From the IMG/VR virus record IMGVR_UViG_2657245660_000018: a stretch of DNA of 9,457 nt. One strand, written 5' to 3'. Below the pieces are notes generated by a model that ran no database searches, was not told the origin of the DNA, and saw only the letters and a program-made list of their open reading frames with translations. This document shows positions 1-9,457 of this stretch, in pieces (within the stretch, counting starts at the first letter, position 1; each line of letters begins with the position of its first letter). Both the position numbers and the translations under genes were made by a program. Source of the stretch: a virus. Its lineage: Duplodnaviria; Heunggongvirae; Uroviricota; Caudoviricetes.

Positions 1-173
1 TGTCAGTTATCATCTTCGGTTACGGTTATCGGCAGAACGCCCTGCCGCTGACAAGAGCTTATTTGCCTGACCAATCTACTCCACATGATAGATAACTATC
101 ATTTATAACATTTCATTGATTAGTCTTTATTTTTCACTATGTTACAAATAACAACTCCGTCAAAAACAGCGAA

Positions 174-197
174 ATTAACTACACCATTAACTACACC
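174..197. repeat. perfect tandem direct repeat, 2 x 12 bp (ATTAACTACACC)
   Basis: Read directly: attaactacacc at 174-185 and again at 186-197. Confidence 0.85.
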
Positions 198-203
198 GTT
201 TCA

Positions 204-240
204 CGAACAATATCGAACAACCACGAACAAAGATCAACAC
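204..240. repeat. helically phased short direct repeats (CGAACAA x3 plus TCAACAC, 10-bp period)
   Basis: CGAACAA at 204-210, 214-220, 224-230 and related TCAACAC at 234-240; the spacing is exactly 10 bp. Confidence 0.75.
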
Positions 241-293
241 GCTTTAACCGTTATCATTTTCCGGCCATCCGTTATGAAGCTGGTGGATGTTCC

Positions 294-396
294 CCGATAT
301 GGGTATCCCCACCTACCTGGCTTTTTTTCCGGTTAAATGTTAATCAGGCTGGTGGCCTTTACATACCCTTGATCACGGTAATGATGATTCAGGTGC
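294..396. repeat. copy 1 of a ~100-bp direct-repeat module (degenerate hairpin plus 83-bp core)
   Basis: Core 314-396 matches 851-933 at 81 of 83 positions. The preceding CCCGATATGG hairpin (294-313) is degenerate in this copy. The copy ends in a second hairpin, TTTTCCCC-agt-GGGGTAAAA, at about 401-420. Confidence 0.8.
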
Positions 397-536
397 GTAC
401 CTTTTCCCCAGTGGGGTAAAAGCTCCAACCGTAACGATGTTCGTTGTGGTTGCCTTGATGGTCTGCGTGGTCATTATGACCATTCAGAATTTGAAGGGTG
501 ATGTTTCCGATCTCCTCAAATTGAGGATTGTGGAAG

Positions 537-549
537 AATCAATGGGTTA
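537..549 (+). promoter_or_regulatory. exact match to IHF core consensus WATCAANNNNTTR (AATCAATGGGTTA)
   Basis: Consensus match read directly. It is part of a recurring AATCAATGGGTTAG unit. Confidence 0.5.
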
Positions 550-590
550 GTCTTACTTTCCCAACATCCCCCAATGGGGGTTTTCGAAAT

Positions 591-603
591 AATCAATGGG
601 TTA
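591..603 (+). promoter_or_regulatory. exact match to IHF core consensus (AATCAATGGGTTA)
   Basis: Second copy of the AATCAATGGGTTAGG unit. It is flanked by the palindrome CCATAGTGCA-attt-TGCACTATGG (606-629). Confidence 0.5.
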
Positions 604-742
604 GGCCATAGTGCAATTTTGCACTATGGAACAATTCCAACCAGTTATCGGCATCAGGCCCACCAGCCAACGCAATTTTGCGCTTTGCTTTAATCTCAGT
701 AAGTTACCGCGCCAATTTCCGCAGTCTGTGGAAATTGGGAAG

Positions 743-6826: not shown

Positions 6827-6833
6827 ATCAGAT

Positions 6834-7013
6834 ATGGCAACGAAAGCAGTTAATGGAAAATCCAAAAAACTTGAGGCACGAGTCCCCCATGCAATAGCTG
6901 ACGCCGTAGAAAATTTAAAGGAAGAAGGCGAAAGCACTGGGCAATTTATCGTTTCGGCACTTGAAGGCGAGATCAAACGCCGCCAGCGCCGCAAGGCCAA
7001 AGAGCAGGAATAG
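6834..7013 (+). CDS. small ribbon-helix-helix-like DNA-binding protein (59 aa), candidate regulator / repressor of the element
   Basis: ATG at 6834 with AAGGAA 7 nt upstream. The product MATKAVNGKSKKLEARVPHAIADAVENLKEEGESTGQFIVSALEGEIKRRQRRKAKEQE has an N-terminal strand-like KLEARVP, then two helices separated by a G-x-S-T turn, and a basic tail. This is a motif-level inference. Confidence 0.55.
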   Translation: MATKAVNGKSKKLEARVPHAIADAVENLKEEGESTGQFIVSALEGEIKRRQRRKAKEQE

Positions 7014-7101
7014 TCCACCAGCAAGCCAGCACACTGAGCACATTGCCCACCAGACAGCAAATCGCTATGATGTTCGGGCTTATGTTTAGTGTTTTCCCAT
7101 T

Positions 7102-7130
7102 GGCGACCGCCACAGGTCGCCTTTGTTTTA
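7102..7130 (+). terminator. rho-independent terminator for the plus-strand regulator gene
   Basis: GGCGACC-gccaca-GGTCGCC hairpin (7102-7121) followed by TTTGTTTTA. The minus-strand side is not U-rich, so it is unidirectional. Confidence 0.65.
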
Positions 7131-7147
7131 TGTGTCATATGTTCCCC

Positions 7148-7372
7148 CTACGCTGCCTTACCTGAATTAATACGATCCCGGCTTTTAACCCATTCCATAA
7201 CCTCGGACAGCAGCCACCCTACAGAACGACCGCCCAGATTAAGACGTGACGGAAAGCGCCCTTTTTTCTCCAGTTCGTAGCGTGTAGTGCGGCACACTCC
7301 TGTTAACTTACGGCATTCATCCTCACGGATTACGCGATCTGATAGTGATTGAAATTGTGTATTTTGATTCAT
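7148..7372 (-). CDS. alpA: AlpA-family (prophage CP4-57-type) transcriptional regulator / excisionase-like HTH protein (74 aa)
   Basis: ECRKLTGVCRTTRYELEKKGRFPSRLNLGGRSVGWLLSEVMEWVKSR matches the AlpA HTH pattern (sTiYrli..G.FP.p..lG.r.vgW...ev..W). The ATG at 7370-7372 is the only possible start: an in-frame stop lies at 7448-7450 with no ATG/GTG/TTG between. No Shine-Dalgarno is present. Confidence 0.8.
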   Translation of the reverse strand: MNQNTQFQSLSDRVIREDECRKLTGVCRTTRYELEKKGRFPSRLNLGGRSVGWLLSEVMEWVKSRDRINSGKAA

Positions 7373-7407
7373 AAAAAAACGTCCTCGAACGTTGCCGAAC
7401 GAGGACG
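7373..7407 (-). terminator. rho-independent terminator / attenuator between the int operon and alpA
   Basis: Stem CGTCCTCG (7380-7387) and CGAGGACG (7400-7407) with a 12-nt loop. On the minus strand it is followed by U7 (plus-strand A-run 7373-7379), which directly abuts the alpA start codon. Confidence 0.75.
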
Positions 7408-7434
7408 ATTCTAGGCGGTAGTAAAACGCCGTTT

Positions 7435-7467
7435 GTGTGATATCACACTACCAGCACGTGATATCAC
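7435..7467. promoter_or_regulatory. pair of palindromic operator-like sites (GTGTGATATCACAC and GTGATATCAC), centres 21 bp apart
   Basis: Perfect 14-bp palindrome at 7435-7448 and perfect 10-bp palindrome at 7458-7467, read directly. They overlap the 3' end of the 257-aa gene and lie upstream of the terminator and alpA. Confidence 0.55.
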
Positions 7468-8237
7468 TTTTTACGTTTTTGTTGAGATTCACGCCCCAAA
7501 TACTTTTGCCATGTCTGCCAATGTGTTTTTGGAAATTCTATCCCTCTGGATGCAGCTATAGAATCAATTAAATCTGCTATTTTAGGTAATGATTCCGTGT
7601 CCAGGTCTACATCACCCATTTCTGGAATAAGTTTAATTAAAGAGTAAATAACCTCATTCCTTTTTGACGATGCTTTTGGGCTATCTTCTGTTATCTTCGG
7701 GAAGTCTCCCGTATTTTTTATATTATCTAAATCACTAGCCATCACACACAAATAGTTAACATCAAATTCATAACCACCCTTACAAAAAACATACATGAGA
7801 TTATCATCACCATACTTATTCGTAAGATGAGAACATTTTATATATTGTCTCATGCTAAATTCGACATCAGCAAAAACATATGCCGGAGTATAATAAAACC
7901 CTGATAAGCTGCTAACATAATAACATTTGATAGAATTCCCTACAGGACCAATAATGGCACTATCTAAAAATTCAGTGTCACCAGTTAAACCAACTGTAAA
8001 ATTACTTCCAAAAACAGCAGATTCATCATTGAAAGGATATTTTATTAATTCTTCCTCATTACAACCATTGATAAAATGACATAATGAAAAATTGAATTTT
8101 TTAGCATCAATTTTTGGTATATATACAGAAATATTAAGAGCACCTATATATGCGTAATGATAAAGATCTTTTATTGCACAGCCTAACTTTTCTGCCGCTT
8201 CAGGTAACGGATAATAGAGTCTTTTAGGTAATTTCAT
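7464..8237 (-). CDS. AT-rich orphan protein of unknown function (257 aa); candidate accessory / cargo gene
   Basis: ATG at 8235-8237 overlaps the int stop (ATGA), with AAGGTGG inside the int 3' end. TGA stop at 7464-7466. G+C is about one third by eye, against about one half in the flanking genes. No family recognised. The N-terminal segment PLPEAAEKLGCAIKDLYHYAYIGAL loosely resembles an AlpA/excisionase-type HTH. Confidence 0.75.
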   Translation of the reverse strand: MKLPKRLYYPLPEAAEKLGCAIKDLYHYAYIGALNISVYIPKIDAKKFNFSLCHFINGCNEEELIKYPFNDESAVFGSNFTVGLTGDTEFLDSAIIGPVGNSIKCYYVSSLSGFYYTPAYVFADVEFSMRQYIKCSHLTNKYGDDNLMYVFCKGGYEFDVNYLCVMASDLDNIKNTGDFPKITEDSPKASSKRNEVIYSLIKLIPEMGDVDLDTESLPKIADLIDSIAASRGIEFPKTHWQTWQKYLGRESQQKRKK

Positions 8238-9457
8238 TTGGCCACCTTCAGCATAACAATATTTTCATGATTTCCAGCCAGCACATCGAGACGCTCAACC
8301 CATAGATTAAGAGCGTCACGTTTTGCATCAAGATAACGGGAGTGATTATAGACTCGTTGCATTCCTGGCAACTGGTGCGCGGTAAGCTGCTCCACAACGT
8401 GCGGTTCCACGCCTAAATCGTTCAGCATCGTTGTAAACGTGTGCCGGATGTCGTGCAACGTCCAGGGGGCTTGATTAATGCGTCTGTGTGCCGTTCTTCC
8501 GTACTCTGATACGGATGATTGCCCTTTCAGTTCTCCGAGCAATAATCCCGTGTGCCTGTTCTGCTCCACCAGCTTCATGACAAACGGCAAGATCGCTTCC
8601 GGTATTGGCCTGAATATTGCTACCTTCGTTTTGCTGTGTTCTTTCGGCACGGTCCAGAGCATTTCTTTAAAATCCCATTCCTGGACCTCAGAGCGTCTTA
8701 GCTCAGTGGTACGACATCCGAAGACAATCAGGAGGCGAATCAGGGCGCTGTAGTACGGTGGGTAAATTTTTTCATCAAGGGCGCGTAGTAATTCCCCAAG
8801 CTCCTTGTTTGTTAGTACGCGCTCGCTTATTTCTGCTTTTTTCCCAACATCACCGACAACCATATCATCAAGAACGTTGCTGATTGCGTATCGTCGTTTT
8901 CGGCAGTACTTAAGCGCCTGTTTGCATACCTGTAGCAAAAATCCGGCTGATACCGGATTACGCTTAGCAAGCTGGTCAAAACAGGCCAGCCAGTGGCGTA
9001 GCTCGCATTTTTCCAGTGGCATAGCGCCAATCTGGCTAATTATGTGTTTATTGATCCGGCTTTTCAGTGATTCGTAGTCAGTGCGCTTTTCCTTTGCGTA
9101 CGATTCAAGCCAGTAAGTGAGCGCTTCCTTAACCGTCACGGGGGCTAACGCGTCCTGTACAGCATGATTAAGTTCATAGCGCGGATTTTTCCCCTCAGCC
9201 AGCCAGGCGCGACACTGTGCCGCTTTTTCCCTGGCAGCTTTCAGGCTCAGATCGGGATAATTGCCCAGCCTCAGACGTTCCGGTGATATCTGCCTACCAG
9301 TTCCGGCCCTGTAAGTGAAATACCAGGTTAACAGGCCATTGGTTGAATGCCTTACGCTAAGGTTGCCACCATCATTAAAAAAGGTGTTTTTTGTGGTTGG
9401 TGATCCGCTTAATTTTCGTAAAAGAGTGTCGCTAAGTCTATGAATTGCCCTGCTCAT
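8234..9457 (-). CDS. int: tyrosine site-specific integrase, P4 / CP4-57 family (407 aa); 5' end coincides with the window edge
   Basis: The N-terminal segment (LSDTLL...NDGGNLSV...LGNYPDLSLKAAREKA) matches the arm-binding domain of P4-type integrases. The C-terminal catalytic region has box I Arg in GCRTTELRR, H-x-x-R in HDIRHTF, and Tyr in RVYNHSRY. Because the ATG is the last three bases of the window, a slightly longer N-terminus cannot be excluded. Confidence 0.9.
   Translation of the reverse strand: MSRAIHRLSDTLLRKLSGSPTTKNTFFNDGGNLSVRHSTNGLLTWYFTYRAGTGRQISPERLRLGNYPDLSLKAAREKAAQCRAWLAEGKNPRYELNHAVQDALAPVTVKEALTYWLESYAKEKRTDYESLKSRINKHIISQIGAMPLEKCELRHWLACFDQLAKRNPVSAGFLLQVCKQALKYCRKRRYAISNVLDDMVVGDVGKKAEISERVLTNKELGELLRALDEKIYPPYYSALIRLLIVFGCRTTELRRSEVQEWDFKEMLWTVPKEHSKTKVAIFRPIPEAILPFVMKLVEQNRHTGLLLGELKGQSSVSEYGRTAHRRINQAPWTLHDIRHTFTTMLNDLGVEPHVVEQLTAHQLPGMQRVYNHSRYLDAKRDALNLWVERLDVLAGNHENIVMLKVAK

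Follow-up and report, generated by a model that had tools for sequence, protein, structure and literature searches.

A probable classical phage-inducible chromosomal island of Escherichia coli, located between clpS and cspD, with its own small terminase and a capsid homologue

The 9,457-nt stretch of viral DNA analysed here in its full length (IMG/VR record IMGVR_UViG_2657245660_000018; hereafter 'the window') is very probably a classical Gram-negative phage-inducible chromosomal island (PICI), carrying all five core components of its class and integrated between clpS and cspD of Escherichia coli. This assignment is a reading of the sequence, made on the criteria of the SatelliteFinder model and of Fillol-Salom 2018 by way of Pfam, PHROG and BLASTP matches. 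The core that SatelliteFinder defines for PICIs consists of an integrase, a regulator of the AlpA, MerR or Stl type, a primase-replicase, a capsid-morphogenesis gene (a component commoner in the PICIs of Proteobacteria) and a small terminase, whilst holin, tail, portal and head-tail connector genes are forbidden components (PMC10085698). In the window, the integrase gene lies at one end (8234-9457) with an alpA gene beside it (PF05930, E 2e-16); the primase-replicase gene (3770-5524) is followed by 11 iterons of a predicted origin, directly 3' of pri-rep as published for PICI origins (PMC6092414); and there is a small terminase gene (Terminase_2, phrog_641) and a capsid-morphogenesis gene, the latter assigned on a PF05065 match and a BLASTP match at E 1e-19. 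No forbidden component was found among the open reading frames (ORFs) scanned, and the flanks are housekeeping sequence.

Since this gene set matches the published five-component definition and the published size of PICIs (median 9.5 kb and 15 proteins; PMC10085698), it is canonical. 'Type A' PICIs, those with all five components, are 97% from E. coli (PMC10085698), and the island shares with them the five components in the same order, the size class, the host species and the absence of portal, tail and lysis genes; no difference in kind separates it from them. Single components also have precedents: a major-capsid homologue is present in 21 of the 29 reference Gram-negative PICIs (PMC10111431), EcCICFT073 (as c1499) and PmCI172 each carry a capsid homologue, and terS homologues have been known in some Gram-negative PICIs since 2018 (PMC6092414). 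An earlier note on this DNA had read it as a satellite, which is borne out by the core genes, by the att-bounded island and the empty site in K-12 described below, and by flanks free of terL, portal, tail and lysis genes. The note had also called the gene set unusual; it is in fact standard for Type A classical PICIs of E. coli, a class omitted from the note's comparison. Its remark that the set matches neither P4-like satellites nor capsid-forming PICIs (cf-PICIs) is correct for both, but this does not put the island outside known families, since it fits the classical PICIs. A literature search found no experimental description of a PICI lineage at yljB/clpS-cspD with an HK97-type capsid homologue and a Terminase_2 TerS. 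Two existing names were considered and rejected: EcCIEDL933 is a cf-PICI, and EcCIMP1 lacks capsid and terminase genes and has another integration site. As a classification alone, a standard E. coli Type A PICI matters little; what interest remains lies in its packaging genes and in two conserved modules.

The island and its place among phage satellites

The features of the window, from the integrase end, are as follows.

8234-9457, minus: int, 407 aa; P4-type tyrosine integrase with arm-binding domain (PF00589, Phage_integrase; PF13356, Arm-DNA-bind_3; phrog_1, E 1e-68)
7464-8237, minus: orphan gene, 257 aa; no family match
7148-7372, minus: alpA, AlpA-family activator/excision factor (PF05930; phrog_2790)
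6834-7013, plus: YlcI/YnfO-family small protein, divergent (NF041551, E 4e-17; phrog_949)
6431-6634, minus: Icd-like protein (phrog_6196), in an early operon, 5521-6634
5826-6438, minus: three small conserved early genes (phrog_5796, phrog_1478, phrog_3672)
5521-5820, minus: DUF4222 protein (PF13973)
3770-5524, minus: primase-replicase (primase-helicase), 584 aa (D5_N, DUF5906, Pox_D5; phrog_864 DNA primase, E 2e-172)
3530-3755, both orientations: iterons, 11 copies of GGTAGAGG, candidate replication origin
3174-3482, minus: small conserved gene (phrog_1231, E 2e-46)
3155-3138, minus: terminator-like hairpin 3' of the phrog_1231 gene (terminator scan)
2684-2845 and 2849-3043, minus: two small genes heading the packaging operon, 53 aa of coiled-coil type and 64 aa (ORF scan; annotated in RefSeq copies)
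2612-2679, minus: cos-like block, G-run ... GGACACCGCCCCCCGTCTCA ... AGAAAATT, directly upstream of terS
2324-2596: AAGTTAC repeats, five in terS (2324-2394) and two upstream (2578-2596), candidate TerS recognition sites (island-specific cosB)
2065-2553, minus: terS, small terminase subunit, 162 aa (Terminase_2, E 3e-10; phrog_641, E 4e-43)
1892-2053, minus: 53-aa TerS-tail-like protein with acidic tail (phrog_641 positions 89-125, E 3.5e-7)
979-1902, minus: capsid homologue, 307 aa (PF05065, E 1e-6; phrog_617/10)
240-978: non-coding terminal module with hairpin/IHF (integration host factor) array, direct repeat and palindromes
167-239: candidate integrase arm-type sites, ATTAACTACACC twice at 174-197, then CGAACAA motifs
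86-102: att core at the int-distal junction, TGATAGATAACTATCAT
1-85: chromosomal flank, upstream region of clpS, outside the island (matches K-12)

A 96-97% identical copy lies between clpS and yljB/cspD and is flanked by a 17-bp direct repeat; the window is thus an island of 9.5 kb with defined ends rather than a fragment of a prophage. The repeat, TGATA(G/A)ATAACTATCAT, is the att core, and its second copy, TGATAAATAACTATCAT, lies at 21616-21632 of a 97%-identical copy of the island (L001), 168-184 nt past the right edge of the window, where it overlaps the stop codon of the small gene yljB. K-12 has an empty site with a single core copy overlapping the yljB stop codon, and window positions 1-85 are its clpS-yljB intergenic sequence, identical up to the core. 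The K-12 empty site and the right flank of L001 together give an island length of about 9.53 kb. The PICI criteria name a specific att site between direct repeats, a size of about 10-15 kb and near-unidirectional transcription, and the direct repeats, length and gene orientation found here agree with them. In O157:H7 strain F8092B, the neighbours of the island are clpS/clpA at one end and yljB/cspD/macB at the other, and the genes for 12 kb in either direction are ordinary housekeeping ones. Beside int but outside the window (L001 21465-21537), adjoining the other att core, is a 73-nt stretch 74% identical to positions 167-239. These 73-nt stretches with ATTAACTACACC, one next to each core, are probably the integrase arm-type sites; the motif also occurs near int of a related, EcCICFT073-like PICI (L007).

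The extension of the flanks that the earlier note had proposed therefore located both cores, one within the window and the other, as it had foreseen, just beyond the right edge, and the flanking genes are not those of a full-size prophage of which this could be an internal fragment: neither the clpS/clpA nor the yljB/cspD/macB side has terL, portal, tail or lysis genes. The note's size of about 8.5 kb was an underestimate given these junctions. Its inventory of int, alpA, a ribbon-helix-helix regulator, an iteron-associated primase, terS and a capsid homologue stands as to the genes, all of which are present; the ribbon-helix-helix fold has no Pfam or PDB support in the YlcI-like regulator, nor in the 64-aa protein. 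Near-total co-directionality was also rightly noted, since the ORF scan puts every gene but one (6834-7013) on the minus strand, as was the absence of large terminase, portal, tail and lysis genes: in Pfam and PHROGs scans no window ORF matches terL, portal, tail, holin, endolysin or head-tail connector/adaptor genes.

By megablast, 38 of 5426 complete E. coli genomes carry the window at 96-97% identity and at least 80% coverage, O157:H7, O103:H2 and O121 strains among them, and 5425 match some part of it. Almost all differences between the window and its nearest copies fall within about 5000-5750 (the primase N-terminus) and about 6000-6750 (the small early genes). Because the differences are confined to these two blocks, with the remainder near-identical, the window is a recombinant variant of the island, and the block pattern indicates recombination or ongoing exchange between PICI variants. 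The small number of carriers, all with the island at one site in the genomes examined, would suit a decayed, immobile remnant of a prophage or cf-PICI, as would a capsid homologue devoid of protease and scaffold parts, which would then be a leftover. Such decay is improbable, however: the ORF scan finds all core ORFs intact, both att repeats are intact, the mosaic structure points to continuing exchange, the short capsid-like proteins make up a subfamily, full-length at about 310-350 aa, with 28-50% identity, and the three-gene packaging module has been kept in a Serratia island (see below).

The P4-type integrase, AlpA, the D5/P4-alpha-type primase and the Icd-like and YlcI-like small genes are also what a P4-like satellite exploiting a P2-type helper would possess. 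That assignment can be given almost no weight. No ORF matches Psu, Delta, Sid or epsilon (Pfam, PHROGs), so that neither the psu-delta-sid operon nor epsilon was found, whilst TerS and an HK97-type capsid homologue, both lacking in P4, are present, and their phage relatives are lambdoid prophages rather than phages of the P2 type.

Within the PICIs, the island resembles EcCICFT073 (PMC6092414, PMC6739421) in its backbone of int, alpA, small genes and pri-rep/ori and in its single capsid homologue. With the EcCICFT073-like L007 it shares the non-coding terminal module and an integrase of 78% identity. EcCICFT073, however, has no TerS and uses Rpp to re-target the lambda-type TerS of its helper to a cosB of its own; a head-decoration gene accompanies its capsid homologue, and it uses helpers of the lambda/phi80 type. 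The island, in contrast, has its own TerS and an HK97-type capsid homologue, and general scans gave no Rpp-like annotation or match, these scans not including a dedicated Rpp profile. An Rpp-type cos PICI, which is defined by Rpp, a lambda-type cosN and no TerS, is therefore not what is seen here, since the island encodes TerS. The cf-PICIs (EcCIEDL933 type, such as L006) share the early region (Icd-like protein, DUF4222 and a primase-type replication protein) and the non-coding terminal module, but in addition they code for protease, portal, head-tail connectors, HNH and TerL, all of them missing from the island; in place of the full head module of L006 it carries only a capsid-body homologue and TerS.

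Among the pathogenicity islands of Staphylococcus aureus (SaPIs), SaPIbov5 depends on helpers that need HNH and terminase for cos cleavage, as the present island may do, and is alike in having a single capsid homologue, Ccm, which makes small capsids according to what is cited in PMC6092414. It differs in being Gram-positive, in its Stl-type repressor and in carrying the helper's cos with no TerS of its own, and the proteins are not closely related. The pac-type SaPIs (SaPI1, SaPIbov1) are alike in encoding a TerS homologue of their own, which in them redirects the helper TerL, whilst the small protein Ppi blocks the helper TerS (PMC6739421); they differ in headful packaging and in size redirection by CpmA/B, and have no sequence relationship to the island.

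The packaging module and its candidate helpers

TerS and the capsid homologue each retrieve the same phages when phage genomes are searched by tblastn: long-tailed Shiga toxin (Stx)-converting phages of the Stx1a, Stx2a and Stx2c types, PPompW and a few E. coli siphophage records. These encode an HNH endonuclease immediately upstream of terS-terL, a layout typical of HNH-dependent cos packaging (cf-PICI preprint), together with a protease-capsid fusion. That both island proteins match the HNH-cos lambdoid prophages of enterohaemorrhagic E. coli (EHEC), Stx-converting ones included, appears to be a new observation, and such prophages are likely to be the helpers. A packaging module of this type (HNH, TerS, TerL and the 645-aa fusion, as in PPompW_EH2246 and vB_EcoS-705R7) is present in 2068 of the 5426 complete E. 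coli genomes, with as many as 14 places in a single genome, and strain 99-3311 carries the island together with a helper-type packaging module at 99.8% identity.

The island TerS is 47% identical over its full length to the 187-aa TerS of PPompW, with the C-terminal helical region especially conserved, and this level of identity extends to the TerS of Stx-converting prophages. Upstream of terS, the cos-like block of about 70 nt (2612-2679) matches the HNH-terS intergenic region of vB_EcoS-705R7 and PPompW at E 2e-5. The repeats next to it are not shared: AAGTTAC occurs nine times in the window against 1.17 expected, a number reached by none of 200 shuffles, and seven of the nine cluster at 2324-2596, whilst the phage has GTTAAC five times at the equivalent place. 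A cos-like block held in common with phages beside repeats that differ, AAGTTAC in the island and GTTAAC in the phage, seems likewise not to have been described before, and is most simply explained by a cut site that both share, next to private TerS-binding sites. A search for the lambda cosN returned one chance-level match, with one mismatch, inside the primase gene, and a cos of the lambda/Rpp type was therefore rejected.

The AAGTTAC repeats in terS coincide with a KVT-rich repeat of the TerS linker, VTKPKKVTKKVTEKVT (window 2320-2395). Because of this coincidence, the same bases may have a double role, in the protein sequence and as binding sites for TerS.

Search of a species-level genome collection with a seven-sequence alignment of the capsid homologue found a single relative, in an island of Serratia aquatilis. 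The gene order there is int, a helix-turn-helix regulator, a D5-type primase, terS, a 54-aa gene and a 311-aa capsid homologue, and the island ends at a sequence that reads as a tRNA gene. The 54-aa gene (L005 9843-10007) is homologous to the 53-aa TerS-tail-like protein (E 6e-10) and occupies the same position. The module of terS, 53-54-aa gene and capsid-like gene is about 45% identical between the E. coli and Serratia islands, and its recurrence in Serratia, as judged from these alignments, is apparently also new. Its retention at this level of divergence argues that all three genes are functional. The core of the cos-like block is kept upstream of the Serratia terS as well (G-run, CG, GA-ACC-C-CCCC-TCTCA, AGAAAA-TT).

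Packaging could instead be of the headful (pac) type, started by the island's own TerS as in the pac-type SaPIs, in which case the block upstream of terS would be inherited sequence. TerS, a member of Terminase_2, has weak similarity to the DNA-binding domain of the SF6 small terminase, and recognition repeats inside terS are typical of pac sites. Against this, the closest phage terS genes adjoin an HNH endonuclease gene, the layout of HNH-dependent cos packaging, and a G-run ... CCCCCNTCTCA block is common to the E. coli island, the Serratia island and the phages. We therefore regard headful packaging as unlikely and a cos-type mechanism as the better account.

The 53-aa gene (1892-2053) overlaps the start of the capsid homologue gene, and its product resembles the C-terminal helical region of TerS (phrog_641 profile). 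By analogy with Ppi, it may act on the helper TerS.

The capsid homologue is 25% identical (BLASTP, E 1e-19) to residues 291-625 of a 645-aa PPompW protein, a fusion of Peptidase_S78 and Phage_capsid. Since it aligns only with these residues, it corresponds to the HK97-type capsid body alone, without protease or scaffold. HMMER searches place it in a short capsid-like subfamily (about 310-350 aa) set apart from the phage capsid proteins of 450 and 640 aa. Its score against TIGR01554, 26.3 bits, is below the 27.5-bit cutoff, and it has no PDB sequence match. A protein without the scaffold domain needed for ordered assembly might serve chiefly for interference or defence, by poisoning helper capsid assembly, rather than as a component that redirects capsid size, and PICIs commonly interfere with their helpers (PMC6092414). 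We think this rather unlikely, since deletion of c1499 did not relieve the interference exerted by EcCICFT073 (PMC6092414).

A life cycle can be proposed from the sequence and from published data on related PICIs. The island would remain quiescent until a helper prophage is induced, whereupon AlpA would switch it on and, with Int, excise it. The primase-replicase would then start copying the island at the iteron origin, a short way downstream of the gene that encodes it. The island TerS would bind the AAGTTAC repeats and recruit the helper TerL and HNH to the cos-like cut site common to both, and island DNA would be packaged in place of phage DNA. Meanwhile, the 53-aa mimic of the TerS tail may hinder the TerS of the helper, and the capsid homologue might co-assemble with the helper capsid protein and alter assembly as Ccm of SaPIbov5 does, or be dispensable for transfer as c1499 is. 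Such packaging logic would parallel that of the SaPI TerS and Rpp systems (PMC6739421), achieved here through TerS and a cos-type helper.

Several points weigh against this scheme. Induction, excision, replication, packaging and helper identity are all inferred from sequence. Coding for the KVT-rich linker may partly account for the AAGTTAC repeats inside terS, and the similarity of the cos-like block could stem from shared ancestry of the terS region rather than mark a working cut site. At 9.5 kb, the island is about one-fifth of a helper genome of 44-55 kb, a difficulty for cos-to-cos packaging. The AlphaFold2 model of the capsid homologue, built from a six-sequence alignment, has a mean predicted local distance difference test (pLDDT) score of 51 and is too poor for a fold search, so that the HK97-type assignment is one of profile and pairwise sequence matches. 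Finally, deletion of c1499 of EcCICFT073, the only tested capsid homologue of a Gram-negative PICI, gave no phenotype (PMC6092414).

Taken as a whole, the scheme amounts to a hybrid strategy directed at the HNH-cos prophages of EHEC and not yet shown in Gram-negatives, with the island's own TerS and AAGTTAC repeats set beside a shared cos, the 53-aa mimic disabling the helper TerS and the scaffold-less capsid body redirecting head size. We offer this combination tentatively, as possible rather than probable. If true, the island would lower the yield of Stx-phage particles; found as it is in EHEC serotypes, it could, by competition with Stx phages for packaging, influence how toxin phages spread. 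It would also provide a clean test case of a Gram-negative PICI with its own TerS and a cos-type helper, the studied E. coli models using Rpp (EcCICFT073) or a full head module (cf-PICIs).

Conserved modules at the two ends of the island

Two conserved, uncharacterised modules are common across PICI classes, a gene coupled to int and the hairpin/IHF array at the opposite end; were the hybrid strategy true, this low-GC gene and the array would be new functional modules common to several of these classes.

The first is the orphan gene between int and alpA (7464-8237), the start of which overlaps the int stop codon by 4 nt and the GC content of which is 32%, against 49% for int. Its family comprises about 19 clusters without annotation, all from Enterobacterales where the source names the organism. 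The protein has a variable middle and a conserved C-terminus, and the only recognisable fold in its model (pLDDT 78) is an N-terminal winged helix of the Xis/MerR type. A Klebsiella cf-PICI and a Providencia island have homologues in the identical slot between int and alpA; wherever int is annotated, the homologues overlap it by the same 4 nt, and they lie 9-17 GC points below their neighbours. L007, with its 78%-identical integrase, lacks the gene, which is therefore accessory. PICI immune systems are known to lie at the int-proximal end (PMC11364771; PMC10085698), and the orphan is a candidate defence or recombination-accessory gene.

The second is the terminal module of about 740 nt between the arm-type sites and the capsid gene (240-978), in which no convincing ORF was found. 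The core of the array (504-812) has about six units of some 50 nt, each a short hairpin whose stems vary between units yet stay complementary, and behind four of the units comes a perfect IHF consensus site. The window has four matches to the IHF consensus WATCAANNNNTTR in all, every one of them here, at 537-809, against 0.64 expected. An 88-nt direct repeat (314-401 and 851-938) brackets this core, and a 26-nt palindrome, CCCGATATGG-TGATCC-CCATATCGGG, is present in full at 819 and 937 and in part at 293. The module is common to the int-distal ends of the cf-PICI L006 and of L007, which has a different att site, and is absent from the Serratia island.

One unit of the array (499-555) is 90% identical to a site in the roi (antirepressor-like) gene of lambdoid and Stx1a phages (L013 1201-1258), with the same hairpin and IHF site. 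Clerget and Boccard (1996) reportedly found that the Roi protein of HK022 binds a site within its own gene beside an IHF site. The array might thus bind a Roi-type phage protein together with IHF, although this is only a lead. The Stx1a phage carrying the roi site has no TerS or capsid homologue, so that this lead is independent of the one to the candidate helpers.

Replication origin and regulatory sequences

The 11 iterons at 3530-3755 (at most one mismatch to GGTAGAGG) lie directly 3' of the primase gene, and the whole window holds 13 against 3.7 expected, a number again reached by none of the 200 shuffles. The array is a candidate replication origin.

Elsewhere in the window, the two small genes at 2684-3043 have no significant family match, ARAGORN found no tRNA, and Rfam at E <= 1 gave a spurious snoRNA match only. 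A 235-aa ORF at 6431-7138 and plus-strand ORFs within 240-1000 were judged spurious, since they overlap annotated genes on the other strand or fall in repeats.

Between the YlcI/YnfO-like gene and the Icd-like early operon, three GTGGCTGACA repeats (6731-6813) overlap a promoter-like site, TTGACG-17-TAGTAT (6772-6744, minus). The repeats look like operators for a repressor, and the YlcI/YnfO-family protein is a candidate for the repressor of the early operon. Shortly upstream of alpA are two GTGATATCAC palindromes (7467-7458 and 7446-7437) and then a hairpin of terminator type, with a T7 run (7407-7373), which ends directly at the alpA start codon. Together, palindromes and hairpin may form an attenuator or another control point for helper-dependent expression of alpA.

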